DNA of 64,000 nt from a virus, in IMG/VR virus record IMGVR_UViG_3300040801_001572, positions 32,001-96,000 of that record, one strand, 5' to 3'. The position numbers were made by a program, and so were the translations under genes. Positions 46,213-63,186 of this stretch are shown in pieces. The notes under the pieces were generated by a model. It did no database searches and was not told where the DNA came from. It worked only from the letters and a program-made list of their open reading frames with translations. The first letter of the stretch is position 1, and every line of letters begins with the position of its first letter.

Positions 46213-46591
46213 TAGCATGACACGTTGGGCGGAAGCTGCAAAACAGTTCCGCGCAGATTTACATGAGATCACTTATTTCTCTAGAGACAGAAGAAATCGA
46301 TATCAGGAAATTTACGCCAGTCACGGTGGCGATCGAAACATATACGTATACCTCAATATGTTCACACACGAAATACTTCGTATTGTGATCTCGTGCGATT
46401 ATTCTGCTGACTCGCACCAGAATCAAACCGAATCAGTTGACATTTTAACTAACGATGCTAACTTAAAACTTCAGATCGAGAGTTTAGACTCGGTCAGAGA
46501 AATGCGTGAATCGATGTCAGTATGTCGCAAACTTGCATACGAAGACACAGTTTACGCTACATTAAAGTATGGAAAATTGAAACCTTTCTAA
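46190..46591 (+). CDS. Hypothetical protein
   Basis: ORF track. Confidence 0.6.
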   Translation: MANQLFDDSMTRWAEAAKQFRADLHEITYFSRDRRNRYQEIYASHGGDRNIYVYLNMFTHEILRIVISCDYSADSHQNQTESVDILTNDANLKLQIESLDSVREMRESMSVCRKLAYEDTVYATLKYGKLKPF

Positions 46592-46634
46592 AGAAGGAGT
46601 CGAACATGAATTAACATGTTGTTATAATTTTCAA

Positions 46635-47110
46635 CTATACTTAAGAATGCTCGGGTACGAGCTGCCTCTAGTTGGAAGGAATGTCCGCCACCAATTATGT
46701 AAAATATTCGACAACAGACCCTGGGACATAAAGGCTGTTGTGGGTTGATCACAAACCTAACCGAAATTTGTGTGCCTCTTGTTCAGCCTTACATGAATAA
46801 TGCAAACTAGTCAACGATGGTAGTACCCGCTGCTTTAGTAAGGATAGGCAGCGACATTTAAGTGAAACTGTGCGGCATTGGAGCCGCGTCGACAAGGGAG
46901 AGTTTACTCCCAGTACAAGATAGCACAGACGCTGTGAGCGGAAATACGTCAGAGACTGCCAAATCGCAGTGACCAATTTTTCTGCAAGATGGTGCTCGCA
47001 GAAGAGCAATCAGCTGAATCCCCTGAGTGGACAAGTCGATGGCGATGACCTTGTGCAAAGACGGACAGTGGGCGGGGTAGAGTCCGCCCTCACTTAATTA
47101 CTCACTTTTT
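46635..47110 (+). ncRNA. Candidate ~470-nt structured ncRNA of unknown family
   Basis: Extended -10 TGnTATAAT at 46620-46628; nested helices; terminal GC-rich hairpin and T run; no credible ORF. Confidence 0.55.
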
Positions 47111-47122
47111 TATAAAAAGCAG

Positions 47123-47150
47123 TTGACAGAACATAAATAAACTTTATACT
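47123..47150 (+). promoter_or_regulatory. sigma70 promoter P1 of the tRNA array
   Basis: TTGACA-16-TATACT. Confidence 0.7.
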
Positions 47151-47216
47151 GCACCGCATTGTTTAGCGATTTTGGCATTGAAGGCCAAAAACTGCAAAAA
47201 AACCTGTTAAAAGAGG

Positions 47217-47245
47217 TTGACTTTTGTTTGGAAGCTAAATATAAT
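47217..47245 (+). promoter_or_regulatory. sigma70 promoter P2 of the tRNA array, with overlapping late TAAATA
   Basis: TTGACT-17-TATAAT. Confidence 0.8.
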
Positions 47246-47293
47246 TGCGGAACAGTTAACGAGTTCCACTGCGTTGGGCTCTAATTAAAGGAA

Positions 47294-47458
47294 ATGGTAA
47301 GACAAATGTTTACGATATTACACGACAAGCAACTCGGACATCGCTGGCAAGCGACCGCATCCGTGTTGGCGTGTGGATCAGAACTGAGTCTGATGGAACC
47401 TGGCTTTAATTATGATCCGATTAGCGCAGCTTCTTTAGGGGAGGAAGAGCTTTACTAG
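47294..47458 (+). CDS. Putative attenuator leader peptide MVRQMFTILHDKQLGHRWQATASVLACGSELSLMEPGFNYDPISAASLGEEELY
   Basis: AAGGA upstream; in-frame ATGs at 47294 and 47306; all 20 amino acids; overlaps the antiterminator strand. Confidence 0.65.
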   Translation: MVRQMFTILHDKQLGHRWQATASVLACGSELSLMEPGFNYDPISAASLGEEELY

Positions 47459-47491
47459 AATGACTTAGTGAACTCAAGCAAGAACCTAAAG

Positions 47492-47517
47492 AAGCAGCTC
47501 AAGAAGCTGCTTTTTTT
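47492..47517 (+). terminator. Conditional intrinsic terminator (attenuator)
   Basis: AAGCAGCT-CAAGA-AGCTGCTT plus T run; both strands are complementary to 47426-47439. Confidence 0.8.
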
Positions 47518-47801
47518 ATGGCTAAAGTTTTGTAAGGCAGCTTGGATAGAAAACTTTAGCCCGTGTAGACACCAACTACGCGGTGATGGTAAGGACGGCT
47601 TAGTATGAAAGCGCAGAGGTTGAAATCCCTCCCGACTCATACTTTGGCAACCCCGGCTAGTGCGGTAGCTAGTTCGGTCCAGGTACCCCGGAACTCTATT
47701 CGTGAGGACGAATTTTGCGGGATAGAATTTGTCCTTGATTTTTCGGTGGGCGAAAGGAAATAGGTCCGAGTAGCCCACTTTTAATATTAAGTGCTTTTTG
47801 T

Positions 47802-47890
47802 GGTGGCTGTGACGAAATTGGTAGCCGTGCAAGGTTGTGACCCTTGTGTCTGTAATGGACGTGGGAGTTCGAGTCTCCTCAGTCACCCCA
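47802..47890 (+). tRNA. tRNA-His(GTG) with G-1:C73 and an unusual long variable arm
   Basis: Cloverleaf; CAAGG-TTGTGAC-CCTTG; encoded CCA. Confidence 0.9.
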
Positions 47891-47965
47891 AAGAGCATTT
47901 GTAATACCCCAAGAACTATGTGACCTCAACCTTGGCATATAAATGAATCACATAGGAGAAATGTT

Positions 47966-48343
47966 ATGATTTACGTAGAAGACTTTCAGTCTTGGGAAGA
48001 TGTTGAGCAGTGCTTCAACATGAAAGAGGATAATGCAATTCCGTTATACGCTGAGTATACCTACGAGAACTACGATGGCTCTGCTTTCGTGTTGTATGTT
48101 GATCGTCGTGATATGCAGTTGTATGCGGTATACGGAGGACACTGTTCTTGCTACGGCTTAGAAGACCAGTGGGATCCTGAGCATATTCCTTGGAATGTAT
48201 CTGCAGAGATGGTAGGTAAAACTGCTAGCTTAGGTGGATACGAACAGGTTGTTCTTGACATGATAAACTCAATCGTGGGCTCCGGTTCCGAAGAGGACAT
48301 CATGCAAGGATTAACTGTGTTCAAACTAAAGCACTCAGTGTAG
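47966..48343 (+). CDS. Hypothetical protein (HCSCYGLE motif)
   Basis: GGAG SD. Confidence 0.65.
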   Translation: MIYVEDFQSWEDVEQCFNMKEDNAIPLYAEYTYENYDGSAFVLYVDRRDMQLYAVYGGHCSCYGLEDQWDPEHIPWNVSAEMVGKTASLGGYEQVVLDMINSIVGSGSEEDIMQGLTVFKLKHSV

Positions 48344-48359
48344 GAAACTACACTGTTTT

Positions 48360-48434
48360 CTCCCGGTCGATTATTGGTTAAATCATCTGCCTTTCAAGCA
48401 GAAGCACGGAGTTCGATCCTCCGTCGGGAGACCA
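48360..48434 (+). tRNA. tRNA-Glu(TTC)
   Basis: TCTGC-CTTTCAA-GCAGA; CCA. Confidence 0.88.
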
Positions 48435-48437
48435 AAT

Positions 48438-48580
48438 TAGGTAGTATGCTACGAACCTCACATGGAGGAGACGCGGATCTACCGAGTCGTTAGAATAGAT
48501 GATTAGCATGAACCTTGCTCGACCATCTAATAGTTCTAGACTATTAGACTCAAGCGACTGGATTGCTAGTGTACTACCTA
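48438..48580 (+). ncRNA. Candidate ~145-nt rod-shaped RNA between two tRNA-Glu genes
   Basis: 14-bp closing helix TAGGTAGTATGCTA/TAGTGTACTACCTA plus inner helices. Confidence 0.45.
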
Positions 48581-48595
48581 GCGGCGGGCTTATAT

Positions 48596-48683
48596 GTCGT
48601 AGTGGACGAATGGTAGAGTCGCCGGGCTTTCACCCCGGAGTTGCGTATGCATGTTGCGAGTTCGAGTCTCATCTACGATTCCA
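48596..48683 (+). tRNA. tRNA-Glu(TTC) with long variable arm and U73
   Basis: CCGGG-CTTTCAC-CCCGG; CCA. Confidence 0.8.
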
Positions 48684-48705
48684 AACAAGTTTTATAAATA
48701 GGTGT

Positions 48706-49365
48706 ATGATCTACATTGTTTATAAAACAACAAATACTGCTAACGGAAAAGAATACATCGGATGCCATAAAACAAAAGACATTGACGATGGCTATTTAGG
48801 GTCCGGAAGATTGCTTCGAGAAGCAATAGTTAAATACGGCATAGATTCTTTTCGTAGAGAGATTATTGCTATATTAGATAGCGAAAAAGAAATGTTTGCG
48901 TTAGAAGCAAGTATTGTTGATCGAAATTACGTCGATAGAAACGATACATATAATTTAACATTAGGTGGCCATGGAGGATTCTCTCATATATCGAAAGAAT
49001 CTATGTTAGAGAGAAACTTGCAAATTAATTCACATCGTGATTACGAGTGTGAACTTTACAAAGAAAATTTAAAAGCATCTCTTGCTACTGTAGACTACAG
49101 CGAAAGAAATAAGCGAAGAAGAGAAACGTTAGTTAATCGATATGGCTGCGTTCCTTCTTCGTTTAAAGGCAGAGAGCATACTGATGAATCAAAGAAGAAA
49201 ATTGGTTCGGCAAATTCAAAACACCAGCAAGGCACCGGCAACAGCCAATACGGAACTTGTTGGATATACAATTTGCATCTAAAGAAGAATCAGAAAATTC
49301 CTAAATGCGATCTTGATGCGTGGCTAGATAAAGGCTGGCACAAAGGTCGTAAGCTAAAATTTTAG
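48706..49365 (+). mobile_element. GIY-YIG (Seg-like) homing endonuclease
   Basis: IVYKTTN...EYIG and YLGSG motifs; TATAAATA + 5 nt + ATG. Confidence 0.87.
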
Positions 49366-49436
49366 GGGGTGCCATATGGGATGGACTTTGCACTTGCACT
49401 GCGAATGGCGGGGATCGTTACCCCGTTCCTCCACCA
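49365..49436 (+). tRNA. tRNA-Ala(TGC) with degenerate D arm
   Basis: G3:U70; TTGCA-CTTGCAC-TGCGA; CCA. Confidence 0.75.
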
Positions 49437-49442
49437 AATTAT

Positions 49443-49519
49443 GCCGATGACGCGTCCTGGGGGACCAACACGACTGTCTATCGTGTGCATGGCGGGTTCG
49501 ATTCCCGTCTTCGGCGCCA
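49443..49519 (+). tRNA. tRNA-Asp(GTC)
   Basis: CACGA-CTGTCTA-TCGTG; G73; CCA. Confidence 0.85.
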
Positions 49520-49589
49520 AACATGATATGTACTTTTCCGTTAGTCAGCTACTCCAGTAGCCGAGAAAATGCCTCTATCAACTTTTTAT

Positions 49590-49677
49590 GCCCCGGTAGG
49601 CGAATTGGTATAGCCAGCAGGCTGAGAACTTGCGTCCCTCTGTAGACTTGTCGGTTCGAGTCCGACTCGGGGCACCA
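49590..49677 (+). tRNA. tRNA-Leu(GAG)
   Basis: GCAGG-CTGAGAA-CTTGC; long variable arm; CCA. Confidence 0.9.
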
Positions 49678-49730
49678 TCTTCATACTAGTTTATTGTGCT
49701 GTACGAAAACTAGTTTATTGTGTTAAAAAT

Positions 49731-49806
49731 GTGTGCGTGACAGAATGGCTAATGTAGCGGATTGCAACCCCGTTTTTTGCTGGTTCGATTCCAGTCGCAC
49801 ACTCCA
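49731..49806 (+). tRNA. tRNA-Cys(GCA)
   Basis: Loop TTGCAAC; U73; CCA. Confidence 0.88.
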
Positions 49807-49814
49807 AATTCCAT

Positions 49815-49888
49815 GCCCGGTTAGTTTAATGGAAAAACATCTGTGTTACATACAGAAGACGTTGGCTCGATTCCAGCACTGGGTACCA
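49815..49888 (+). tRNA. tRNA-Val(TAC)
   Basis: TCTGT-GTTACAT-ACAGA; CCA. Confidence 0.85.
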
Positions 49889-49894
49889 AACAAT

Positions 49895-49972
49895 GGGGGG
49901 TGAGCTAGTCTGGTGATTCAGCGTCCGCCTGAAGAGCGGAAGAACTTGGTTCGATTCCAAGACCCTTCACCA
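49895..49972 (+). tRNA. tRNA-Phe(GAA)
   Basis: TCCGC-CTGAAGA-GCGGA; CCA. Confidence 0.9.
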
Positions 49973-50016
49973 AATATAGATATTTCCGACTAAATACAAA
50001 TTTAGGAGGAGATATC

Positions 50017-50385
50017 ATGGCAGTAAATCAAATACCGAGCAAACATGCTTTTGCTTTTACAGTAACTGACACCGCTGGTGTAGAACATAAACTTTGGTGG
50101 GATCTAGTGCAAAGTGTATATTTTGCATGGGAAACCGGAGTGTTCCTTATACACCTAGACGACGGTGTTTACAAGCGTATCGCCGCGGCCGACCTGTACC
50201 CAGAATCACAAGCTCCAGAAGGGCGATATGTGAAATTGGTAAACGATTGTCGTAGTACGTTTAATGAAAAGATTTCTAGCATGTTTCTTACTGCAGAGTT
50301 AGGTGAACACCCAGTCGATGACGAAGCATTTGATGCACTAGTCACCGGACTAGTGTGGGATCCTGAAGCACAACAGTTCAAATAA
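50017..50385 (+). CDS. Hypothetical late protein
   Basis: AGGAGG SD inside a hairpin that also contains TAAATA. Confidence 0.7.
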   Translation: MAVNQIPSKHAFAFTVTDTAGVEHKLWWDLVQSVYFAWETGVFLIHLDDGVYKRIAAADLYPESQAPEGRYVKLVNDCRSTFNEKISSMFLTAELGEHPVDDEAFDALVTGLVWDPEAQQFK

Positions 50386-50386
50386 C

Positions 50387-50470
50387 GCGGGCTGCAGGCT
50401 AACTGGCGTAGCCGACGGGCTTCCACCCCGTTCCGAAAGGTTCAGAGTTCGATTCTCTCAGTCCGCTCCA
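50387..50470 (+). tRNA. tRNA-Gly(TCC) with 8/4 fold and a short variable-arm hairpin
   Basis: GCGGGCTG/CAGTCCGC acceptor; 4-bp T stem; U73; CCA. Confidence 0.82.
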
Positions 50471-50476
50471 ATTTTT

Positions 50477-50550
50477 GCGTGTGTAGTATAATGGTATTAT
50501 GCTAGGTTGCCAGCTTAGTGATGCAGGTTCGATTCCTGTCACCCGCACCA
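50477..50550 (+). tRNA. tRNA-Gly(GCC)
   Basis: CTAGG-TTGCCAG-CTTAG; CCA. Confidence 0.88.
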
Positions 50551-50556
50551 AACAAT

Positions 50557-50627
50557 GGGTCGTTGCTCTGGGAGCAAATTGGATTCCAAACCCAATGAGG
50601 AGGGTTCGAAACCTTCACGGCCTGCCA
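50557..50627 (+). tRNA. tRNA-Trp(CCA) with short D arm
   Basis: Loop TTCCAAA; G73; CCA. Confidence 0.8.
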
Positions 50628-50689
50628 ATCATGCACATATAAGTCGGTAGGTACGTTGATCCTGACTATATCACTGTGCACTAAATAAT

Positions 50690-50742
50690 GCCCCGGTAGT
50701 GTAATGGCCATCACGCTTGACTGTCTATCAGGAAACCGGAGT
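50690..50742 (+). pseudogene. 3'-truncated tRNA-Asp(GTC)
   Basis: 5' acceptor strand, D arm and CTTGA-CTGTCTA-TCAGG present; breaks at the T loop where the HNH promoter begins. Confidence 0.75.
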
Positions 50743-50758
50743 AAAGATAAATAGTATT

Positions 50759-51466
50759 ATGAATTATACAAGAATTTATAATGCTATTATTTCGAGAGCA
50801 AAAATGCGTCCGGTTTTAGAAGGATACGCCGAAAGGCACCACATAATTCCTAGATCATTAGGCGGCACAGACGATTTAGATAATCTAGTTATGTTAACAG
50901 CCAAGGAGCATTTTATATGCCACCTGCTTTTAGCTAAGATGTACGAGAAAAATTCTGTGGAATGGCAAAAGATGACCAAGGCATTGATGATGATGCGAGC
51001 GTCTGGTAATGCACATGACAGATATACGTCGGCAACATACGAGTATTTTAAAGAGGCGTTTTCCGAAGCACAGAGTTATGCACAACGAGGCAGTCGAAAT
51101 AGTAGTTATGGAACTCGATGGATTCACAGTTTAGAATTTAAGCAATCTAAAAAAATCTGTAAAAAGGCACCTTTGCCTGATGGCTGGAACGAAGGCAGAA
51201 TTATTGACTTTGAAAAACATGCCTCTGCTATGATGAAGAAAAAGTTATTAGAAGATCAACAAGCAGAATGGGTTGCCAGGTTAGGCATAATATTAGAATA
51301 TTATAGAGATAACGATATTTCCATCAGGGCGTTGTCGAAAAAGTTTAATGTAAACGGTAACATTTATAAGCAGTTTGAAAAATATTACCCAGAAGAATAT
51401 CGAGATATTGTGATGGATAAGCCTCGCAATAGCAACAAAGGAAAAGGTAGATATATGCCTGCGTAG
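50759..51466 (+). mobile_element. HNH homing endonuclease
   Basis: ERHHIIPRSLGGTDDLDNLVMLTAKEHFICH; TAAATA + 5 nt + ATG. Confidence 0.87.
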
Positions 51467-51532
51467 CTCAATCGGGAGAGCACCGGCCTGTCACGTCGGA
51501 GGTAGTGAGATCGAAACTCATCGCAGGCGCCA
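51457..51532 (+). tRNA. tRNA-Asp(GTC)
   Basis: CCGGC-CTGTCAC-GTCGG; G73; CCA. Confidence 0.9.
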
Positions 51533-51605
51533 AATTACTTAAACGGAGAATGTATGTTCAACACTAGTTAAGCACTTCTTATTCATGGAATAAGGAGGTG
51601 CTATT

Positions 51606-51830
51606 ATGAACAGAGCACAATATATGACTCCTGAGCAAAAAGCTCTTTGGGAGTCCGCTGAAAAGCGTGAGGGTCGCAAGATTAAAAGGACCCACGAGAA
51701 CTGCCGCAAAATCCTAGGCCGTTACATTACGGTCAAGGACAATGCGGGAAACAAAACCCGCGTGTTTCGCCCTGGCGTGGCGAGACCTGGCAAGACTGCG
51801 CGAGATCGCGCAAGGAGGCGCGGGAAGTAA
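51606..51830 (+). CDS. Small, very basic protein (74 aa)
   Basis: TAAGGAGGT SD; Arg/Lys-rich. Confidence 0.7.
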   Translation: MNRAQYMTPEQKALWESAEKREGRKIKRTHENCRKILGRYITVKDNAGNKTRVFRPGVARPGKTARDRARRRGK

Positions 51831-51837
51831 AAACAGA

Positions 51838-51928
51838 GGAGGGTGATCCTGTCTGGGACAGGCGTGGTCTTGAAAACCAATGGAGGGTAGAAATATCCTT
51901 GCAGTTCGATTCTAGCCGCCCTCTGCCA
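51838..51928 (+). tRNA. tRNA-Ser(TGA) with tRNA-Sec-like / allo-tRNA-like 8/4 architecture
   Basis: 8-bp acceptor; 6-bp D stem CCTGTC-TGG-GACAGG; long variable arm; G73; CCA. Confidence 0.8.
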
Positions 51929-51932
51929 AATT

Positions 51933-52143
51933 GCGTCGGTGTCTTCCATGCTTAACTTTTAGCGAAGTGAGGGGAGACGAACGTATAGCTTGTACGAACG
52001 GTGTCCTAACGCTGCGCCACGTTTCTCGCTATTCGTTAGGTGTCAAGCTTAAGAAGCGGCCAACAAAACAGGTTATTTCGGGCAGGGCAGAGACGAGCGT
52101 AACCCCCGAATGACTTGGGCAGGAGTTGCGACCTGTCGACGCA
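51933..52143 (+). ncRNA. ~210-nt structured RNA closed by a tRNA-like acceptor/T-arm domain
   Basis: GCGTCG/CGACGC closing helix stacked on GCAGG-AGTTGCGA-CCTGT; long internal hairpins. Confidence 0.55.
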
Positions 52144-52151
52144 CTTATTAG

Positions 52152-52201
52152 CCGTCCTGATGATGACTTAGAGGAGTCGAAACACCACATGGTGTAGGCG
52201 G
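52152..52201 (+). ncRNA. Type I hammerhead ribozyme
   Basis: CCGTC / CTGATGA / GACTT-AGAG-GAGTC / GAAA / ACACC-ACAT-GGTGT / A / GGCGG; predicted cut after A52196. Confidence 0.85.
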
Positions 52202-52253
52202 AGTAGAAGCGTAACTGTAAATGATAAATAAAGTAGTCGGTAAAGGCTACTTT

Positions 52254-53033
52254 ATGAATTATGAAAAAATTTACAGTTCTTTAATAGAAAGAAGCAGACA
52301 TAGAAAACTCTCAGGGTATGTCGAAAGGCACCATGTTGTTCCTAGGTGTCTCGGTGGAACTGACGACGCTAGTAATATCGTCGAACTCACTCCAGAAGAG
52401 CACTATTTGGCTCATCAACTACTAGTCAAAATGTATCCAAAATCTTCGCCTTTAGTTCGAGCTGCTCAGATGATGGTACCGAACCGCCCTTCTAATAAAT
52501 TATACGGCTGGGTCAGAAGACGATTTGCTAAAATTCAAAGCGAAACGCAATCCGGTAGAGGTAATACCCAATTTGGTACTATGTGGATCTTTAATGAGGA
52601 ACTTAAGGAATCTAAGAAGATACCGGTTAACTCGGAAATACCGAAAGGTTGGGAAAAAGGCCGAGTTGTAAAATTTGATGAGAAGTTTAGAGAAAGGCGC
52701 GAAACTGAGCAGAACAGAAAACCTCGTGTATTATGTTCGGAAAGAGAGAAGAAATTAAGACGCATTAAGTCTAAGCATAGAAAAATAAGAAGATCAGAGA
52801 AATATATGTCTGCAAAAACAAAAAAACTTTATTTAGAGTTTCTTTCAGCAGATTTGTCATTAAGAAATTTTGCAAAACAAAAAGGCATAGTGCCGATGAC
52901 ACTTTCTAATTGGTTTAATAAGTATATCGATGAGTATGATATAATACCCAGAACCAAAGCAAACAAACAATTAGGGGCGGACGTATCCTTGGGAGATACA
53001 ACAGGTTGTAACCCTGTCGCGAAGGCTAGGTAG
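52254..53033 (+). mobile_element. HNH homing endonuclease
   Basis: ERHHVVPRCLGGTDDASNIVELTPEEHYLAH; reading frame ends inside tRNA-Tyr. Confidence 0.87.
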
Positions 53034-53057
53034 GTTCGATTCCTACCCGCCCCACCA
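52974..53057 (+). tRNA. tRNA-Tyr(GTA)
   Basis: ACAGG-TTGTAAC-CCTGT; variable arm; CCA. Confidence 0.9.
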
Positions 53058-53097
53058 GATTATTTCGCGGAGTTAACTACTCCGCCACCAAATTTTT

Positions 53098-53192
53098 GCC
53101 GGATGGTGTAATTAACAAGCCTCTTTGAAAGCGTAGGTTTAACCTATTTGAATGCTGAGGAACTGCAGGTATCGAATCCTGCTCCGGCCCCA
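53098..53192 (+). ncRNA. CCA-ended tRNA-like RNA lacking a canonical anticodon loop
   Basis: GCCGGA/TCCGGC acceptor; GCAGG-TATCGAAT-CCTGC T arm; CCTC/GAGG stem capped by a 33-nt insert. Confidence 0.6.
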
Positions 53193-53211
53193 TTTATTTT
53201 ATAGAAACAAT

Positions 53212-53285
53212 CTGTGCGTAGCTCAACGGTAGAGTGCTGGCTTTGGAAGCTTGAGGTGCTGGTTCGACTCCAGTCGCACTGACCA
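53212..53285 (+). tRNA. tRNA-Pro(TGG)
   Basis: Loop TTTGGAA; C1:G72; A73; CCA. Confidence 0.85.
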
Positions 53286-53293
53286 AATTCAAA

Positions 53294-53367
53294 CTCCCCT
53301 TAGTTCAATGGTAGAACGGTCCGTTTGGGACGGAGTGACGTTGGTTCGATTCCAACAGGGGTGACCA
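53294..53367 (+). tRNA. tRNA-Pro(TGG), second isodecoder
   Basis: Loop TTTGGGA; CCA. Confidence 0.85.
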
Positions 53368-53423
53368 AACATTGCAATAGATCTGTACAAGTGTTAATAT
53401 TTAATTTTCAGCGAGAATTCACT

Positions 53424-53726
53424 GTGCAAAAAGTTATTGAATTTATTGCAGCAAACATCGACACTGTTGACACGTTCTTCTCCTCCAGATTTGATTCTGT
53501 TGAGGTAACTGCGATAAGCGCAGATCGTGTTTATGTGAACGTAACTGTATCGGACGACGACAAGAAGGCGTTCGGTGAGAAAATGAAGAAGCTCTCGGTG
53601 TTTAAAAAGGCATATGTTGAAACAACTGATGTGAACTTTTCCGTCAGCGATATCTATGACGAAAATTTCGTTGTCCCGAAGGGTGCATTTGACTATAAGA
53701 CGAAGTATCAAATCTACGAAGTATAA
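53424..53726 (+). CDS. Hypothetical protein
   Basis: In-frame GTG after the tRNA; the longer ORF-track start overlaps tRNA-Pro. Confidence 0.55.
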   Translation: MQKVIEFIAANIDTVDTFFSSRFDSVEVTAISADRVYVNVTVSDDDKKAFGEKMKKLSVFKKAYVETTDVNFSVSDIYDENFVVPKGAFDYKTKYQIYEV

Positions 53727-53758
53727 TTCCGGAGAGTCTAAACACGATAAATAGCATA

Positions 53759-54259
53759 ATGCGACATTTCGAACTTAGAGAAGCACGTGAACTACCGTGG
53801 AACGGTAACATTAATGTTGGCTGGTGGGAAGACCAGTCTAAGCTTACATTATATCACGGCACTCATGTCAGCAATGTCGATTCTGTTATCAAGAACGGCT
53901 TAAACAAAGCAGACCCCGACACCGGAATGATATCGCTTACACTTGATCCTTTTACTGCTCGCGGATATGCAGCAATGCACGGCGGAGAAGCAGAGTTTCG
54001 TAAAGCAGGAAACAAAGCACAGCACGTTCCGATGAATCAAAGAGCAGTGTTTGTGTTCGACATCCCAACAGAATGGATCAAAGCAAATATGGATCCACGG
54101 TTCGGAGGTAATGTAGGATCGGCAGCAGGTAAACTGTCCGATCGTGAGCAATACGAACAATGGACTGGATCGGATACAGAATACTATCAGCTAACAGAAT
54201 TTCGAGTTAGCAAAGCAGTACCTCCCCGCTTTATCAAAGGCTACATGCTTACCAAATAA
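53759..54259 (+). CDS. ADP-ribosyltransferase-fold protein (Tpt1/KptA NAD-binding-lobe-like)
   Basis: LYHGT...IKNGL, ISLT.D..TARGYA and E.RV..AVPPRFI motifs; leaderless late start. Confidence 0.65.
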   Translation: MRHFELREARELPWNGNINVGWWEDQSKLTLYHGTHVSNVDSVIKNGLNKADPDTGMISLTLDPFTARGYAAMHGGEAEFRKAGNKAQHVPMNQRAVFVFDIPTEWIKANMDPRFGGNVGSAAGKLSDREQYEQWTGSDTEYYQLTEFRVSKAVPPRFIKGYMLTK

Positions 54260-54326
54260 ATTTGCACTTCTAGCTGTACTTTGCTAGACTGTTTTCTACT
54301 CAAAAGCTTGACAGCAGGTATACAAA

Positions 54327-54800
54327 ATGCTGAATGATATTGTTATCCATGTCGGACTAGATCCACTCGGCGACCTAGTTGCCATGCTCAATGGCAATAG
54401 TGGAGGAACAGAAAGAATAGCAGAGGGCATATACCAAATTGGTCATTTCAATTTTAACCATGTGCTCGAGGCTAGTGGTTACCGACTTGAAGAATACCCT
54501 AAAGATCTTGTGGATTCCGGCGTTGATGACGATCCTTTTGGCTGGGGGTTTAGTCCGTACGGTGTGTGCGATGATCCGCAGCAAATACTAGATCGCTGCC
54601 CTACACTGCAATCACCGGACAGAGATTTTGTGATATCTGTTACTCCGATTCTAAAAGAGAATCAGGAAAAACATGGCGGTTGGCGCTGGCATAAATGGGG
54701 CGAGTATATCGGTGTTCACGAGATTACTAGCGAGTATCTCTACGATGAGCCAGTTGTAGAAAAGGTGTACTGCTACCACATTTACGAAATAATAGAATAA
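54327..54800 (+). CDS. Hypothetical protein (GGWRWHKWGEYIG motif)
   Basis: ORF track. Confidence 0.65.
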   Translation: MLNDIVIHVGLDPLGDLVAMLNGNSGGTERIAEGIYQIGHFNFNHVLEASGYRLEEYPKDLVDSGVDDDPFGWGFSPYGVCDDPQQILDRCPTLQSPDRDFVISVTPILKENQEKHGGWRWHKWGEYIGVHEITSEYLYDEPVVEKVYCYHIYEIIE

Positions 54801-54801
54801 T

Positions 54802-54886
54802 TCCAGGGTGCGCAGAGAGGTAATGCAGCCGGCTGTTAACCGGTCGTCGAAAGACATCGTTGGTTCGATCCCAACCCCTGGAGCCA
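54802..54886 (+). tRNA. tRNA-Asn(GTT) with non-canonical variable-arm hairpin
   Basis: GCCGG-CTGTTAA-CCGGT; GTC-GAAA-GAC arm; U1:A72; G73; CCA. Confidence 0.88.
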
Positions 54887-54887
54887 A

Positions 54888-55157
54888 TTAACCCCACGGT
54901 GCAATTTCTAATTCGACACCGTGTTTTAGTTGTTGTTCGGCACGTTTGCGGACAGCATCATCCCAGTTTTTAGCAAAAGCATAACCTTTGCCAAATTCGT
55001 CCACAATTACGTATTCCTGTTCAGTTACTTCAGGCGGAGTAGGATACCAACGATCGGTAATTTCGTCGTAAGTCATGCCTCGGTCTTTTTGTACCTGTGC
55101 ATGACGCTTCTTTGAAGGAAACTTCACGACGTTTTCGGTTATCTCGGAAACTTTCAT
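54888..55157 (-). CDS. Hypothetical late protein, antisense to the array
   Basis: TAAATA + 5 nt + ATG on the minus strand; N-terminus MKVSEITE. Confidence 0.65.
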   Translation of the reverse strand: MKVSEITENVVKFPSKKRHAQVQKDRGMTYDEITDRWYPTPPEVTEQEYVIVDEFGKGYAFAKNWDDAVRKRAEQQLKHGVELEIAPWG

Positions 55158-55171
55158 AAATATATTTATCT

Positions 55172-55260
55172 GGAAGGTAAATCAGTCAGGGTACTGAGGG
55201 GACCTGCTAAGTCTTTCGTCTGCTTAACGCGGATCTGTTTCGATTACAGTGCCTTCCGCC
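55172..55260 (+). tRNA. tRNA-Ser(GCT) with 8/4 fold; CCA not fully encoded
   Basis: GGAAGGTA/TGCCTTCC; GGGAC-CTGCTAA-GTCTT; long variable arm; G73. Confidence 0.8.
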
Positions 55261-55321
55261 CTTGGGGCAACATCTGCCCAGTGTACGAATACAAATGCAG
55301 TGTGTTCGAATAAATAGTGTT

Positions 55322-55945
55322 ATGTATTACACGATTTATAAAATCACCAATCAAATCAATGGCAAGCAATACATTGGTGCGCATAAGACCACAGATTTAG
55401 AAGATGATTATATGGGCTCGGGGAAGCTATTAATCCGAGCTATTGAAAAGTACGGCATAGAAAATTTCAGTAAAGAAATTTTAGCTGTATTTGATTCTGC
55501 AGAAGAGATGTTCTCACTTGAAAAAGAACTTGTGAACGAAGAGTACGTTAATAGAAACGATACTTATAATTTGACAAAAGGAGGCTCCGGCGGTAATCGA
55601 CTTTTACCGGGAAATTCGACTTGGTCATCCGAGCATTCTAAAATGATGACAGAGAAAAGATTAAAAATTTATACCGAAGATGAACGACGTGAATGGTCTA
55701 GAAAAGGCGGCCTGGCAATAAAGAAAAAAGGCACTGGTATATTTTCTCCGGAAAACAAAAGAAACAAGGGTAAGCCCCATTCCGAGGAGCACAAGAGAAA
55801 GATAGGAAAGGCAAATTCTGTGTCTCAGAAAGGATCTAAGAATTCTCAGTATGGAACTAGGTGGATTACCAATGGAATTCTTAATAGAAAAATTAAAAAT
55901 GGCGACTGTATTCCGGAAGGTTGGGTATATGGTCGTACACGATAG
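55322..55945 (+). mobile_element. GIY-YIG (Seg-like) homing endonuclease
   Basis: IYKITNQINGKQYIG and YMGSG motifs; TAAATA + 5 nt + ATG. Confidence 0.87.
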
Positions 55946-56018
55946 GCCCTTAGCTTAATGGTTAAAGCGTCGGACTCTGACTCCGAATATATCTGTTCGA
56001 CTCAGATAGGGCCCGCCA
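55944..56018 (+). tRNA. tRNA-Gln(CTG)
   Basis: TCGGA-CTCTGAC-TCCGA; unpaired 1:72; G73; CCA. Confidence 0.88.
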
Positions 56019-56052
56019 ATTTGATAAATATGTGTAACTTGGGAGGTTACAC

Positions 56053-56334
56053 ATGTCTAAAGAAATGCGAAGAATAATGAATATTTTAGAAAATTATCAT
56101 TATGTATTTGCAGATGAAGCACACGACACCCCTGAAGAATTTCGTAAAAATTTGCATAAGGAAGTTATTGCAAATTATTTGAAAGAGAAACATGGTTTAG
56201 ACTTCAACGAATCTGATGAAGATTATATCGCTGCGCTTCAACAAGGCATTGGGCATTTGATGGCGTTAGATCTCTCAAACTCAGAATTAGAAAGCTACTC
56301 ATATCGGAGCGATGTTCCGCTATTTAAGGAATAG
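56053..56334 (+). CDS. Hypothetical late protein (MSKEMRRIM N-terminus)
   Basis: GGAGG SD inside a hairpin; TAAATA upstream. Confidence 0.7.
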   Translation: MSKEMRRIMNILENYHYVFADEAHDTPEEFRKNLHKEVIANYLKEKHGLDFNESDEDYIAALQQGIGHLMALDLSNSELESYSYRSDVPLFKE

Positions 56335-56360
56335 CCCTAACACAACCCACTAAACACCTT

Positions 56361-56436
56361 CCCTGGCTAGCATAATGGTAAATGCACTCGGCTGATAACC
56401 GAGCGAGTCTGTGTTCGATTCACAGGTCAGGGACCA
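56361..56436 (+). tRNA. tRNA-Ile(GAT)
   Basis: CTCGG-CTGATAA-CCGAG; CCA. Confidence 0.9.
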
Positions 56437-56476
56437 AATTATTACAAGTAGTCAAAGTAAACAACTAAATACGCTT

Positions 56477-57133
56477 GTGAAATATTATATTTTATACAAG
56501 ACTACCAACTTAATAACAGGCCAATATTATATAGGTAAACACGAGACAGACAATTTAGACGATAATTATCTGGGCTCAGGGCTGCGGTTAAATCGTGCAA
56601 TCAAAAAATACGGTAAAGAGAATTTTAAAAAAGAAATTCTTTGTTTTCTAGAAAATTCGGCAATATTAAACGATTCAGAAAAAATGTTAATAAATGAGCA
56701 CTTGGAAAATCCGAAATGTTATAATTTAGCACCCGGAGGCCAAGGAGGCCACGTGTATGCTCATTATACAGAAGAAGATAAGAAAAACATTTATGCTAAG
56801 ATTAGCAAAACTTTAAAAAGAAAGAAAATCGCTCCACCGAGGCCCGACCTAAAGGGCAGAACACTGTCCGACGAACACAAGAGGAAGATTAGCGAATCAC
56901 AGAAAGGTCGCAAAAAGCCCACTAGGTCAGCTGAACACTGTAGGAATATTAGTAAATCTCTCAAGGGTAAGAAGCTAAGTAAAAACATGAAGCTTCGTCT
57001 GTCAAACAAAATGAAACAGAATCATGCCAACCATAAAGAATTAACTTGTCCCCACTGCATGAAAAATGGAAAAAGTGGATCTATGTATAGATGGCATTTT
57101 GATAACTGCAAAAATAAGCGCGGGTTAGAGTAG
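56477..57133 (+). mobile_element. GIY-YIG homing endonuclease with NUMOD3-like repeats and CxxC module
   Basis: LYKTTNLITGQYYIG and YLGSG motifs; TAAATA + 5 nt + GTG. Confidence 0.85.
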
Positions 57134-57192
57134 TGGTTACTCATGGGTCTCATAAGCCCACTAGGTCGGTTCGATTCCGGCACCCGCTACCA
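57119..57192 (+). tRNA. tRNA-Met(CAT), initiator-like
   Basis: C1 mismatch; A11:U24; three G:C pairs in the anticodon stem; CCA. Confidence 0.85.
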
Positions 57193-57200
57193 AACACAAT

Positions 57201-57277
57201 GCCGCCGTAGCCCAATTGGCAGAGGCAGTAGGTTTAGAACCTATTCAGTGTGAGTTCGAGTCTCACCGGCGGCACCA
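57201..57277 (+). tRNA. tRNA-Leu(TAG) lacking the long variable arm
   Basis: GTAGG-TTTAGAA-CCTAT; A73; CCA. Confidence 0.88.
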
Positions 57278-57375
57278 ATTAGAGGAGAAATGTTATGTGC
57301 AACTTACGAGTGAAACAACAAACCATAACAATGGCTCCAGTAACTCTAGGTACGATTTTACTCGTGCCTCCCTAT

Positions 57376-57452
57376 GGGTGATTAGTTCAGCTGGTTAGAA
57401 CGGCGGCCTGTTAAGTCGTATGTCCCCGGTTCGAGTCCGGGATCGCCCTCCA
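57376..57452 (+). tRNA. tRNA-Asn(GTT), second isodecoder with U73
   Basis: GCGGC-CTGTTAA-GTCGT; CCA. Confidence 0.85.
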
Positions 57453-57459
57453 AATTCAT

Positions 57460-57488
57460 TTGCATTGTTGTTCCAGAGAGTGTATAAT
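57460..57488 (+). promoter_or_regulatory. sigma70 promoter, leaderless start of the sbtA-like gene
   Basis: TTGCAT-17-TATAAT; ATG 7 nt downstream. Confidence 0.7.
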
Positions 57489-57495
57489 TCCCCCT

Positions 57496-58419
57496 ATGGA
57501 TCCTGCAATTTTATTTTTTGTTTTAGGCTTTATTGCAACACTACTGGGTAGCAATATACGTTTTCCGGAATCAACTGCAAAGGCAGTTAGTCTTTACTTG
57601 CTAATCGCAATCGGCTATAAAGGCGGAATGTCGATGGCAACCGCTGCACTGAGTTATTCAATGGCAATGTCACTAGGACTTGCTTTAGCTGCTAGCGTTG
57701 TTGTTCCGTTAGTCGCATATCTGTTGCTAAGAAAATTAGAAAAACTCGAAGATGCTGTGAGCATTGCAGCAACATATGGTTCGGTTAGTGCAGTGACGTT
57801 TGTCACAGCCGTTGCATTCTTAGAGGCAGCAGGCATAGTGTTTGGCGGTTACATGGTAGCAGCACTGACTGTGATGGAAGCACCTAGTATTGTAATGGCA
57901 CTACTACTTTATAACCGAAGCACTAGTGAAAGCAAAACTTCACTGAAAGAGTTAGGTAGAATTATCTTTGCAGAAAAAAGCATTGCTATCTTGTTAGGTA
58001 GTATGTTTATCGGATATTTTGCAGGTGCCGAATACCAATTAGCACTAGCAATTAAAGGTGATATTTTTAAATTTGCCCTTTGTTTATTTTTGTTAGACAT
58101 GGGCGCAAAGGTTGGTGAACGTTTCCGAGTAACAAAAACACTTGAAATTCATAATGTTCTTTTTGCTCTGTTAATGCCAATTACAGCAAGTATTACCATG
58201 CTGTTAGTGGCTAGTATGTTATCACTTCCGGTAGGTAATGCTTTGTTGCTTGCAATACTGGCAGGATCAGCAAGCTATATTGTTGTTCCGGCCGTTATGC
58301 AAGAAGCTATGCCTGATGCAGATCATGCAAAATATTTTACAATGAGCCTAGCTATCACTTTTCCGTTTAACGTAATTGTTGGCATACCTGCTTATTACTA
58401 TTTGTTGCTGTTGCTATGA
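57496..58419 (+). CDS. sbtA: Sodium-dependent bicarbonate transporter family permease (SbtA-like)
   Basis: DPAILFF.LG, IGYKGG, AATYGSVSAVTF, MEAP, SASYI.VPA and ITFPFN motifs; many hydrophobic segments. Confidence 0.82.
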   Translation: MDPAILFFVLGFIATLLGSNIRFPESTAKAVSLYLLIAIGYKGGMSMATAALSYSMAMSLGLALAASVVVPLVAYLLLRKLEKLEDAVSIAATYGSVSAVTFVTAVAFLEAAGIVFGGYMVAALTVMEAPSIVMALLLYNRSTSESKTSLKELGRIIFAEKSIAILLGSMFIGYFAGAEYQLALAIKGDIFKFALCLFLLDMGAKVGERFRVTKTLEIHNVLFALLMPITASITMLLVASMLSLPVGNALLLAILAGSASYIVVPAVMQEAMPDADHAKYFTMSLAITFPFNVIVGIPAYYYLLLLL

Positions 58420-58673
58420 AAGCAGTTGTTGTACAAGAATCCGATATAGAAAAGGCACTAACCAAAGCAGGTTATATGTCTACACCATACGGCGATAAAC
58501 ATATAGCAAGAGTGTTGGACATTTCAGAAAACCAATCTGTGGTCACACTTAGTACAGGCGAATCTTACTTTTGTGAAACCACAGAAGGACCTAGCTCACA
58601 CGCATACATGAAAATATTCACTGTAGTGGGCAACGTACCTGTTCCGGGAATCGAAGTTGTTCGATTCCCATAA
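58416..58673 (+). CDS. Small protein coupled to sbtA, possibly a diverged SbtB/PII-like partner
   Basis: ATGA overlap; position matches sbtB, sequence resemblance weak. Confidence 0.4.
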   Translation: MKAVVVQESDIEKALTKAGYMSTPYGDKHIARVLDISENQSVVTLSTGESYFCETTEGPSSHAYMKIFTVVGNVPVPGIEVVRFP

Positions 58674-58674
58674 T

Positions 58675-58751
58675 GCCGGTGTACCAGAATAGGCATATGG
58701 ACCTGGTTCAAACCCAGGGGTTTGTGGGTTCGACCCCCACCACCGGTACCA
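58675..58751 (+). tRNA. tRNA-Leu(CAA) lacking the long variable arm
   Basis: CCTGG-TTCAAAC-CCAGG; CCA. Confidence 0.88.
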
Positions 58752-58823
58752 AACATGCGATATACACAGGAAAGCCTCCCTGTTGTGAGCAGGGCAAAGC
58801 GCCTGCAGTCACTATCGCAAATT

Positions 58824-59013
58824 TTTCAGAGGAAAGTCAGGACACGGCGGAAGCCAGGTGGGAGACGAAAGTCGCTAGAACCACAAGATACGAAAGCGCC
58901 GTGCAACACAAACAGTCCAGAGATAAGCTTCAATTGTAGACGGACGGGTAGTGGCACTAGATGAATGACGGTTGAAAAAACAGAATCCTGCTTACGTAGA
59001 ACCGTCGCTGAAA
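58824..59013 (+). ncRNA. rnpB: RNase P RNA, minimal and apparently circularly permuted
   Basis: GAGGAAAGTCAGGAC...AGATGAATGAC...ACAGAATCCTGCTTA conserved regions with compensatory P4 changes; P2 and P3 partner strands lie 3' of P4. Confidence 0.85.
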
Positions 59014-59016
59014 CTT

Positions 59017-59093
59017 GCTCCTAAAGCATTTATTTGGATGATGCCTGGTTTTGTAATCCGGAGAATGGGGTTCGATTCCTCATGGGAGCACCA
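59017..59093 (+). tRNA. tRNA-Thr(TGT)
   Basis: GCTCCTA/TGGGAGC; loop TTTGTAA; CCA. Confidence 0.85.
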
Positions 59094-59111
59094 AATTTAA
59101 TAAATAGCTGT

Positions 59112-59573
59112 ATGAAGCTATACGAAGTCATACAAGAAGAACCATTCGACAGTTCCGAAGTCGGAATGGGCCTTACTCAATACTATAATAGCAATTTTGT
59201 TATGTGGGGCGGAATGCGTTCCGGCAATAGTCCTGCTGGTCAAACACGATTGAAATTTATGGTATTTGATCGAAAGCAACTCGAAGCAGGCGTCGATCAA
59301 GAAGAAGCAGAGATAGGGTTTGTAGAGTTGTTTGTGAAAGACGGGACACAAGAAATAGTTGGTCTAGTTAATATCGAACTCAACAAAGATTTGAGAAAAA
59401 CAGGTTACGGAAGAAAGCTAGTCCGTGATATAGTCGATACCACACAGTCAGGTCTGACTGTTAATGATATCCAGAAACGAGCTAAGGGTTTTTGGAAAAA
59501 GCAAGGCGTAGAATTTACCGATAAAGCAGAAAGATTTGGTAAGATAGATAAAGACCAAAACTCCGATATGTGA
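59112..59573 (+). CDS. GNAT-family acetyltransferase
   Basis: RKTGYGRKLV (motif A) and AKGFWKKQG (motif B); leaderless late start. Confidence 0.75.
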   Translation: MKLYEVIQEEPFDSSEVGMGLTQYYNSNFVMWGGMRSGNSPAGQTRLKFMVFDRKQLEAGVDQEEAEIGFVELFVKDGTQEIVGLVNIELNKDLRKTGYGRKLVRDIVDTTQSGLTVNDIQKRAKGFWKKQGVEFTDKAERFGKIDKDQNSDM

Positions 59574-59605
59574 TAAATACAACAAAACAACACACGGAGT
59601 TTAGC

Positions 59606-60520
59606 ATGTCTTCAGAAATGCGCAAACTAATGGAAGCTGTAATTGGCATGACTTCCGCAGGTGATACTACACCTGATGCTGTTCCAGTAAAAGAAGAACC
59701 AGAACATGCGGATGATGTAATCCGTCTAAGCATGTTGCAAGAAGAAATGCTGGATAATCTAAGAGAATTCAACGACATTGTAGTCAAGATTGCAGGCTAC
59801 GATAGTTCAGTCCATGAAAGATTCAAGCGCCATGTATTTGCTAATATTATGGCAGCAATTGATAATAGTACCTACGGTAGCCGTGGGCACGACATGAACG
59901 ACATTATTACAGACATTCAAGAGAGAATTGATACAGATAGTATTGATGCGCCGGATGTCGATATGGATCAGCTTGAGCGTGACGTAGAGCAGTCATTTCG
60001 CCAAGAAGAATCTTACTTACTAGATGATTACAGTGACCCCGACAGCTTGATGCAAATGCTAAAAGCAGAAGGACACGAAATGGTAGCAGCAGGCCGCGAT
60101 GCAAAGATAGTTGCTGCAATCTTAGGAAAGAAAGCAGGCCTAGACGCTACTAATACCGAAATACTTTATCACGAATTGTTAGATAAAGAGTATGATAGAT
60201 TCCGTGAATCGGTTACTGCAGAATTAGATGAAATTGAAAAGAAATTAGCAGTTTTCGAAAGCAAGATTTTACTAGCAGAAGATCATCAACAGCCTTTGCC
60301 AGGTGCAATTTCTGCTAAGTTGCAACAAGCGCAAAAGCGATATGATGCAGCTAGATCAGGTCTAAGCATTGCGCATAGACTTCCAGATGGCGAAGAAAAA
60401 GCAATGCACATGAAGCGTATTTTTGGAAATATGAATCGTCTTCGTGCTGAAGTTAAAAGAGTCGAAAAAGAACTTGCCCAAGCAGAACAAGATCTTTCAA
60501 GGATGGTAGGTAAGCTGTAA
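59606..60520 (+). CDS. Hypothetical late protein (MSSEMRKLME N-terminus)
   Basis: GGAG SD inside a hairpin with TAAATA in the loop. Confidence 0.7.
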   Translation: MSSEMRKLMEAVIGMTSAGDTTPDAVPVKEEPEHADDVIRLSMLQEEMLDNLREFNDIVVKIAGYDSSVHERFKRHVFANIMAAIDNSTYGSRGHDMNDIITDIQERIDTDSIDAPDVDMDQLERDVEQSFRQEESYLLDDYSDPDSLMQMLKAEGHEMVAAGRDAKIVAAILGKKAGLDATNTEILYHELLDKEYDRFRESVTAELDEIEKKLAVFESKILLAEDHQQPLPGAISAKLQQAQKRYDAARSGLSIAHRLPDGEEKAMHMKRIFGNMNRLRAEVKRVEKELAQAEQDLSRMVGKL

Positions 60521-61080: not shown

Positions 61081-61092
61081 GAGATTAAAATA

Positions 61093-61545: not shown

Positions 61546-61576
61546 AACGATAGCCGGATTTATTCCGGCTTTCTAT

Positions 61577-61650
61577 GCCCCCGCCGGCGGATCCGGTCTT
61601 TCGGCTACGAACCGAGATGATGGCGAGTTCGACTCTCCCCGGGGGTTCCA
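61577..61650 (+). tRNA. tRNA-Arg(ACG) with degenerate D arm
   Basis: TTCGG-CTACGAA-CCGAG; CCA. Confidence 0.75.
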
Positions 61651-61668
61651 AATTTTAGGAAAATAATT

Positions 61669-62729: not shown

Positions 62730-62741
62730 TGGCAGCATAGT

Positions 62742-63008: not shown

Positions 63009-63014
63009 TTTTAT

Positions 63015-63120: not shown

Positions 63121-63126
63121 ATTTAT

Positions 63127-63186
63127 GCCGATGTCTATATAGTGGTCTAGAGGAGACCAAAATCACTAGATACAACGTCGGCGCCA
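63127..63186 (+). ncRNA. 60-nt CCA-ended minihelix RNA with an Asp-like acceptor stem
   Basis: GCCGATG/CGTCGGC-G-CCA; no D, anticodon or T arms. Confidence 0.55.

Follow-up and report, generated by a model that had tools for sequence, protein, structure and literature searches.

The element described here heads a long tRNA array in an uncultured phage, and we regard it as likely that it is a ribosome-operated transcription attenuator whose leader peptide is kept complete for the 20 amino acids. It lies in the window, by which we mean the whole stretch of 64,000 nucleotides that was analysed (bases 32001-96000 of a 114,654-base IMG/VR virus record with an estimated completeness of 31%). The order at the locus, with all features on the plus strand, is two sigma70-type promoters, a leader open reading frame (ORF) of about 50 codons, an intrinsic terminator, a structured spacer of 285 nt and the first tRNA. 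Comparison of related loci at the sequence level shows that this order is shared, that it goes with tRNA arrays, that alternative pairings covary, and that selection maintains a full set of amino acids in the leader.

The major capsid protein of the record shares 76% identity with that of the Pseudomonas jumbo phage PA5oct and 67% with the GAP32/CBB group, and the window's phage and all of the relatives that carry the leader are uncultured. Because PA5oct has been reported to depend on the host RNA polymerase (PMC7318152), sigma70-type promoters and intrinsic terminators are meaningful in this phage group. Neither a tRNA array nor a comparable leader was found in the region downstream of the PA5oct capsid gene, and attenuation is not mentioned in the paper on that phage (PMC7318152).

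The leader and its promoters

A preliminary description of this DNA, made from the window alone, had placed a sigma70 promoter ahead of the leader. That promoter (P2, TTGACT-17-TATAAT, 47217-47245) is present and matches the consensus at 11 of 12 positions, and an additional one (P1, TTGACA-16-TATACT, 47123-47150) matches equally at 11 of 12. The nearest relative, L002, has a comparable promoter at the relative position of P1 (11/12), and its equivalent of P2 (TTGACA-17-TATAAT) is a full 12/12 match. A transcript from P2 would be expected to begin near 47252.

The ORF originally reported downstream of P2 (47294-47458) does contain 54 sense codons, 41 of them distinct, with all 20 amino acids used by codon 40. 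Its start has been revised: the conserved ATG is the second one, at 47306, which gives a leader of 50 codons plus TAG (47306-47458), whereas the ATG at 47294 is missing in L002 and has the AAAGGA sequence merely 1 nt upstream of it. All 20 amino acids are encoded from either ATG. The 41 codons that precede the antiterminator strand (47306-47428) already hold the complete set and would constitute the sensing part of the leader.

The element recurs at the 5' edge of phage tRNA arrays

The same architecture was found upstream of tRNA arrays in related phages, as the preliminary description had anticipated, and the family now comprises 46 distinct leader peptides from viral and metagenome contigs, with a conserved length of 46-63 codons, that form 24 clusters at 70% identity and 6 at 50%. 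L002, which was reached through a structural protein encoded 3 kb away, is 71% identical to the window and syntenic with it; it has its two promoters at the same places, an ORF starting at the second ATG and the same terminator with a different loop. With capsid relatives used as handles to complete genomes, the layout was seen to recur before the first tRNA in three of them (G001-G003, 363-385 kb), and the arrays of G001 and G003 contain 42-43 tRNAs that cover all 20 amino acids. One CUA-anticodon tRNA, of the amber-suppressor type, is present in each of these two arrays (L189-L191 in G001, L186-L188 in G003).

The terminator pattern yielded 14 more IMG/VR contigs with the layout, and a pattern search of related records yielded two more; nine of the 24 matches to the first terminator pattern were discarded as unrelated terminators. 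A metagenome scan, whose pattern fixed only the 8-nt core of the antiterminator strand, its partner and the terminator outline, matched 46 loci, 45 of which are family members; L173, in which a bacterial tRNA is followed by a terminator, was a false positive. Same-strand tRNAs are found within 3 kb downstream in 53 of the 54 loci with at least 800 nt of downstream sequence, the first of them usually 210-300 nt after the terminator, and there is no tRNA within 3 kb upstream in any of the 50 loci with at least 1 kb of upstream sequence. The element therefore marks the 5' edge of the tRNA array.

Clustering unites the window peptide with the main clade only once the linkage threshold is lowered to 40-50% identity. 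What the window adds to the family is a divergent clade with its own antiterminator strand (GCTTCTTTAGG), its own terminator (GCAGCT/AGCTGC), a first tRNA for His rather than Tyr and a different structured spacer, plus a variant found in the 310-kb genome G015 (L103, 1221-1530). There, the ORF looks unrelated, is 85 codons long and has a good Shine-Dalgarno sequence. Its end is separated by 19 nt from a 12-nt perfect pair (CTGCCTTTATGC / GCATAAAGGCAG), which overlaps a terminator located 120 nt before tRNA-His, the first of the array; the loop between the strands measures 45 nt, the same as in the window. The G015 leader lacks Cys and Trp, and its array lacks Trp, Phe and Tyr according to ARAGORN, with Cys 9 kb away, so that a match between the leader's amino acids and the tRNA set, which we had considered, fails for this genome. 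Five related records contained no further leader of the G015 type.

Outside these loci the leader is not seen. In the first searches of viral contigs, queries with the window peptide and with proteins encoded near it retrieved no relatives, and a degenerate GFNYDPI pattern gave 14 chance matches, the only true match being L002/L017. Among GenBank phages (INPHARED) no leader relative of the window, main-clade or G015 types was detected at the DNA or peptide level, a search of 5.8 billion proteins returned only the window's own peptide, and no PHROG family matched the leader. A neighbouring 125-aa protein has distant relatives only, on short contigs.

A conserved motif, GATGATAAATAA(C/A)TTTGT, is located about 45-60 nt upstream of the leader ATG and is followed by a covarying 5' hairpin in L108, L111, L112, L114, L116, L117, L119, L126, L127, L130 and L131. 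It resembles a phage late- or middle-promoter core, and a sigma70-like promoter lies further upstream besides. L002 has GAGATAAATAAC, and the window has TAAATA within both promoter spacers.

Leaders are kept complete for the 20 amino acids

Of the 46 distinct leaders (46-63 aa), 42 encode the full set of 20 amino acids, as do 20 of the 24 clusters at 70% identity, and in 39 of the 46, the window included, the set is complete before the first codon of the antiterminator strand. Among windows of 50-58 aa taken from the proteins of this phage only 0.6-1.7% are complete, and among real protein windows of 40-47 aa only 0.06-0.4%; independent draws gave 1.5-4.4% with the phage composition, 2-7% with the pooled composition of the leaders and 13-30% with a uniform one. 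Column shuffles, in which the conservation of each column is kept, left a mean of 4.0 of 16 leaders complete (maximum 11 in 20,000 shuffles) compared to the 16 of 16 observed, and in the main clade 5.0 of 13 compared to 13 of 13. The residues lost in the shuffles are V, R, H, C, W and I, whose positions differ between real leaders; rare residues therefore move between positions, as in ARLCAG (L127) and ACLRAG (L131). Close relatives share combinations, which is a caveat to these counts, yet the set is complete in each of three deeply divergent groups, namely the window clade, the L123/L147 group and L164 (46 residues). Judged from these comparisons, selection keeps a complete amino-acid set in the leader. 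Six leaders (L145, L152, L160, L166, L167 and L182) carry a tandem 12-nt triplication, with the peptide CAGYCAGYCAGYW, and are still complete.

The high codon diversity that had first drawn attention to the leader is real in the sense that none of 2301 54-codon windows from the long ORFs of this genome reaches 41 distinct codons (mean 30.7). Random sequences matched in composition reach 41 or more distinct codons in 2.2% of cases, all 20 amino acids in 5.9% and both in 0.4%. Codon diversity alone could be a look-elsewhere effect, because one of the 304 short ORFs in the record has both properties. Given the peptide and the codon usage, the window leader has 39 distinct codons where 34.5 +/- 2.0 are expected (P = 0.02), and two relatives have 40 against 35.2 and 33 against 30.8. 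Synonymous diversity is thus only mildly raised, so that the selected property is amino-acid completeness and not the 41 codons as such.

Indels come in multiples of three and leave the reading frame intact in each of the 46 distinct members. The ratio of nonsynonymous to synonymous polymorphism (pN/pS) is about 0.7, a sign of weak constraint on the peptide, and a GGA motif stands about 7 nt before the ATG in most members. The expectation of a variable peptide was borne out for the N-terminal two thirds, which vary freely; it does not hold for the last 15 or so residues, which are conserved as EQDP..ASFYKESGN in the main clade and NYDPI..ASL in the window clade, in part because the last codons encode the antiterminator strand. 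Alanine makes up 10.5% of the pooled leaders and 6.9% of the phage proteome, a mild difference. There is no run of codons for any one amino acid, and most amino acids occur 1-5 times.

Completeness could also have arisen incidentally, from low codon bias and an ancestral peptide of diverse composition, if the element were a general coupling sensor, not one for individual amino acids, that responds only to the presence of a ribosome behind the polymerase, and thus to ribosome availability, initiation or host shut-off. Such a sensor would agree with the four incomplete members of the family, with the use of each amino acid once or a few times in place of the runs of classical attenuators, and with a default fold that is the antiterminator (see below), since an overall loss of translation would then open the array. 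We nevertheless find this explanation unlikely, as the column shuffles show that completeness itself is maintained, 39 of the 46 leaders are complete ahead of the antiterminator strand, where stalls would count, and single codons suffice for sensing in the whiB7 upstream ORF (uORF; PMC10274678).

Two alternative pairings compete for the terminator

The terminator (47488-47517, -14.3 kcal/mol) has a 12-bp stem (47488-47499 / 47505-47516), a CAAGA loop and a U-tract of seven residues (47511-47517), and is conserved in all members; in L136 a compensatory change turns the stem GCCGCT/AGCGGC into GCCACT/AGTGGC. The antiterminator 5' strand, hereafter A (GCTTCTTTAGG, 47429-47439), is contained in the Ala-Ser-Leu-Gly codons (42-45 of 50) of the leader and, as the preliminary description had noted, is the exact reverse complement over 11 nt of the segment T5 (CCTAAAGAAGC, 47485-47495), which overlaps the 5' strand of the terminator by 8 nt. 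A is thereby placed at the end of the ORF and pairs with the 5' half of the terminator, as an antiterminator strand would. Between A and T5 lies an inner hairpin (47447-47475) which, again as described, holds the stop codon TAG (47456-47458), located at its apical loop. The main clade has TAA or TGA as the leader stop codon where the window has TAG. The further complementarity that had been reported, between GCAGCTTCTT (47426-35) and 47501-10, is exact in the window and is not retained in L002; it arises because the terminator stem GCAGCT/AGCTGC is palindromic.

In the window, the 11-nt complement between A and T5 has a probability of P = 0.002 against dinucleotide shuffles, and of 44 terminator-like hairpins in the 114.6-kb record only this terminator has an upstream complement of at least 9 nt to its 5' half. 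The longest perfect complement between A and T5 measures 8-15 nt, with P values of 0.009 to <0.0003 per sequence, and four clades have four different sequences here. The pairing also covaries, as had been foreseen for a functional antiterminator. One compensatory change separates the window (GCTTCTTTA/TAAAGAAGC) from L002 (GCTTCCTTA/TAAGGAAGC), and at the one core position where the search pattern fixed neither strand we counted 33 C-G pairs, 10 U-A pairs and no mismatch or wobble in 43 distinct sequences, the U-A form being present in both the main and the window clades. MAFFT failed to bring the three divergent clades into structural alignment, so the core served as the anchor, the pairing was lengthened from it gap-free, and no fit to the structure entered; under this scheme extension positions 8-13 are Watson-Crick in 80% of cases in register, compared to 24-48% with the partner slid by 1-4 bases. 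The extension of the helix is clade-specific (AGG/CCT, ATATAA/TTATAT, ATTTG/CAAAT, AAGT/ACTT and others). The inner hairpin is found in 43 of 43 distinct sequences (mean z -3.0), built from many stem sequences and with the stop codon in or at the loop. A hairpin further upstream containing GATCCGA had no RNAalifold support and is missing in some members, and it was rejected.

When the 3' segment was folded for five representatives, the antiterminator, with the A:T5 helix on the inner hairpin, was the unconstrained minimum-energy structure (-26.5 to -33.3 kcal/mol). When the 8-nt core of A was held single-stranded, as it would be under a ribosome, the full terminator formed at a cost of 3-7 kcal/mol.

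These pairings also bear on two explanations in which the leader is not a sensor. The first is that the locus holds a small phage protein gene of the usual kind, equipped with a promoter and terminator of its own and situated before the tRNA array by chance, the C-terminal motif serving the function of the protein and the A:T5 pairing being a by-product or a stabiliser of the mRNA 3' end. The ORF does have its own promoters and a strong terminator, and its last 15 or so residues are conserved, with some synonymous third-position changes at the D-P codons. Set against this are the pN/pS of about 0.7 with N-terminal two thirds that vary freely, the failure to find a homolog outside these loci in the PHROG, protein and INPHARED searches, and a completeness that is held by compensating changes far beyond column conservation. 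Moreover, ASFYK is encoded by precisely the stretch of RNA that covaries with the 5' half of the terminator, and such a gene would leave unexplained both the invariable position at the 5' edge of the array and the stop codon in the loop of a covarying hairpin. We consider it most improbable.

The second explanation takes the element as a translation-independent RNA switch, or as a binding site for a phage or host factor, for instance a processing or processive-antitermination signal for the long array, with the ORF being incidental. The hairpins are indeed conserved and covarying, another structured RNA that is conserved lies immediately downstream, the window has a poorly spaced Shine-Dalgarno sequence, and naked RNA would default to the antiterminator, so that some factor must favour termination. 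An incidental ORF is difficult to reconcile, however, with an open frame of 46-63 codons and an ATG in all 46 members despite an inter-clade peptide identity of about 40-50%, or with a stop codon that is always at the hairpin loop, and amino-acid completeness upstream of A would be meaningless for an untranslated RNA. Nor did any Rfam family, T-box included, match at E<=1, and we judge this explanation very unlikely. In the same Rfam search of 46500-64000 at E<=1, neither the leader nor the spacer was matched, and no T-box or Trp, His, Leu, Thr or Phe leader was found; the matches obtained were of tRNA type, a weak RNase P and Plastid-ycf2 on the reverse strand of three tRNAs.

Comparison with known attenuators and tRNA arrays

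Classical leader-peptide attenuators (trpL, hisL, leuL, pheL, thrL and ilvL) contain runs of cognate codons. The phage element resembles them in having a short leader ORF (translated in the classical systems), mutually exclusive antiterminator and terminator, the 5' strand of the antiterminator at the end of the ORF and a terminator before the regulated genes. It differs in that the leader has no regulatory codon run, is 3-4 times longer than trpL or hisL and precedes tRNA genes, and in that no 1:2 'protector' hairpin is supported, so that the default fold is read-through. The absence of a cognate codon run, with all 20 amino acids in its place, sets the element apart from the classical leader-peptide attenuators. 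As for T-box leaders, the element gives no match to their covariance model at E<=1.

The most similar known system is the whiB7/wblC uORF attenuator of Actinobacteria, in which a longish uORF of diverse composition is likewise followed by an intrinsic terminator with a competing antiterminator (PMC10274678). There, efficient translation leads to termination and stalling to read-through as part of a general translation-stress response (PMC10274678), and the same logic would apply here. In Mycobacterium smegmatis the uORF contains every amino acid but Cys and the sensed set follows the composition of the uORF: without its only Trp codon the uORF responded far less to Trp deprivation, and without its His codons it no longer responded to His deprivation, so that single codons were shown to suffice (PMC10274678). 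The differences are that whiB7/wblC is bacterial and regulates a transcription factor gene, whereas the phage element is viral, precedes tRNA genes and has no sequence relation to it; that the whiB7/wblC uORF is specifically rich in Ala and in many species does without several amino acids, whereas completeness is conserved in the phage leader (42/46); and that the geometry with the stop codon in the hairpin loop has not been described for whiB7. The element would thus work like the whiB7 attenuator, yet is not a member of that class.

An array of supernumerary tRNAs whose expression stays low until translation is impaired, as would be the case here, is known from the trn operon of Anabaena sp. 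PCC 7120, a long tRNA array induced under translational stress through the DNA-binding repressor TrcR acting at its promoter (PMC8421152; PMC10272220). The words leader, attenuator and terminator do not occur in either of these papers (PMC8421152; PMC10272220), and full-text literature searches turned up no description of leader-peptide attenuation of tRNA genes or of phage tRNA arrays.

Proposed mechanism

We infer from the architecture that the leader ORF is translated and that the switch operates as follows. Host RNA polymerase would start at P1 or P2 and make the leader of about 50 codons, which a ribosome would begin to translate. A ribosome that keeps pace would be on A or just past it as T5 and T3 emerge, so that A would be masked, the 12-bp terminator would form and transcription would end at about 47517. 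If the ribosome were delayed within the first 40 or so codons, or were absent, A would be free to pair with T5 once T5 had been made; the A:T5 helix, stacked on the inner hairpin, would remove the terminator, and the spacer and tRNAs would be transcribed. A further role of the inner hairpin may be to pause the polymerase and let the ribosome catch up, which is speculation on our part. Because no amino acid is missing from the codons ahead of A, running short of any single charged tRNA would hold the ribosome and open the array. A delay of this kind could stem from starvation, a host tRNA pool that suits the phage poorly, defences that cleave tRNAs or a breakdown of translation in general, and once decoding was fast again, partly by means of the phage's own tRNAs, termination would return.

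Natural signals may include host tRNA damage, mismatch with the host tRNA pool, starvation and host shut-off. The essentials of the translation-sensing attenuator put forward in the preliminary description are supported by the comparative evidence, but its statement that the tRNAs would be expressed only when host tRNAs fail exceeds that evidence: a homeostatic loop in which the phage's own tRNAs feed back on the switch is just as plausible. To the stricter proposal that the leader is a 'pangram' sensor, in which the loss of any single charged tRNA species would derepress the whole array and the phage tRNAs would close the loop, we give about an even chance. Its triggers could be host tRNA-cleaving defences (of the PrrC, PARIS or Schlafen type), phage-induced decay of host tRNAs or a mismatch with the host tRNA pool.

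Two metatranscriptome runs from one microbial-mat sample contain contigs identical to 47378-47690 and 47444-47745, which bridge the terminator; in the DNA runs from that sample the stretch is covered by different pieces. The bridging contigs fit read-through RNA together with a stable spacer RNA; the parts left uncovered by RNA contigs are uninformative.

Several observations weigh against the attenuator as proposed. RNA contigs from one sample cannot give RNA ends, strand or level, and carry-over of DNA is possible. Besides the G015 leader, three leaders are incomplete, those of L154 (without Cys), L177 (without Val) and L163 (four amino acids missing, in a 40-aa leader at a contig end). For D, P, Q and I, the only codons are often those of the conserved motif situated 3-6 codons ahead of A, where a stalled ribosome would partly cover A itself. 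In the window and L002 the AAAGGA sequence lies 12-13 nt from the conserved ATG, a poor Shine-Dalgarno spacing. A ribosome at the stop codon would cover just the last bases of A, so that masking would probably be partly steric or kinetic. The whole leader of the window folds with the terminator in its minimum-energy structure, and RNAalifold applied to the whole leader gives the terminator form with a small local hairpin inside A and no antiterminator; taken with the folds of the 3' segment, this indicates that the two states are close in energy, as expected of a kinetic switch. Finally, one attenuator alone cannot control an array of more than 35 kb that has internal ORFs and probably internal promoters.

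The tRNA array and neighbouring RNAs

The tRNA array begins with a tRNA at 47803-47890 and continues past the end of the window. The count of about 28 tRNA genes in the preliminary description was somewhat high, ARAGORN calling 24 on the plus strand from 47803 to the end of the window and 42 in the whole record; these 42 cover nearly every codon. The first of them was called as His (GTG) with a long variable arm, and blastn found it to be similar to tRNA-Leu genes of T5-like phages. A tRNA-like gene at 51838-51924, which scores 48.5 against the Rfam tRNA-Sec gathering score of 47, was not called by ARAGORN, and weak tRNA-like matches at 49442-49516, 50557-50624, 50690-50743 and 63015-63117 may include the missing tRNA-Trp. 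A weak match to bacterial RNase P class A RNA (58798-59013; 28.4 bits against a gathering score of 100, E 1e-5) lies directly 5' of the tRNA-Thr at 59017.

The terminator had been described as standing just before the tRNAs; it is there, but the structured spacer RNA (47518-47802) lies between it and the first tRNA, downstream of the switch. The spacer is conserved in the window clade (window, L002 and L177), with 63 predicted pairs of which 15 show compensatory changes among the three sequences, and RNA-library contigs cover most of it. Upstream of the promoters, a non-coding block (46620-47110) ends in a GGGCGGG/CCGCCC hairpin followed by a T-run and is partly conserved in L002. An RNA-library contig with 4 differences falls on 46774-47020, which makes the block a candidate for a separate non-coding RNA.

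Implications for phage tRNA arrays

Why phages carry tRNA arrays and how these are controlled is an active question, and tRNA-cleaving immunity and its countering by phage tRNAs are the subject of recent work. The element would be the first cis-regulatory logic described for a phage tRNA array, and a natural attenuator tuned to all 20 amino acids rather than to one. A complete set in a peptide of about 50 residues is an unusual evolutionary constraint, acting on composition rather than on sequence, and the cassette of about 270 nt may serve as a compact general sensor of translation stress. If the pangram sensor is true, it would represent a virus-encoded homeostat of translation capacity and, at the same time, an inducible counter-defence.

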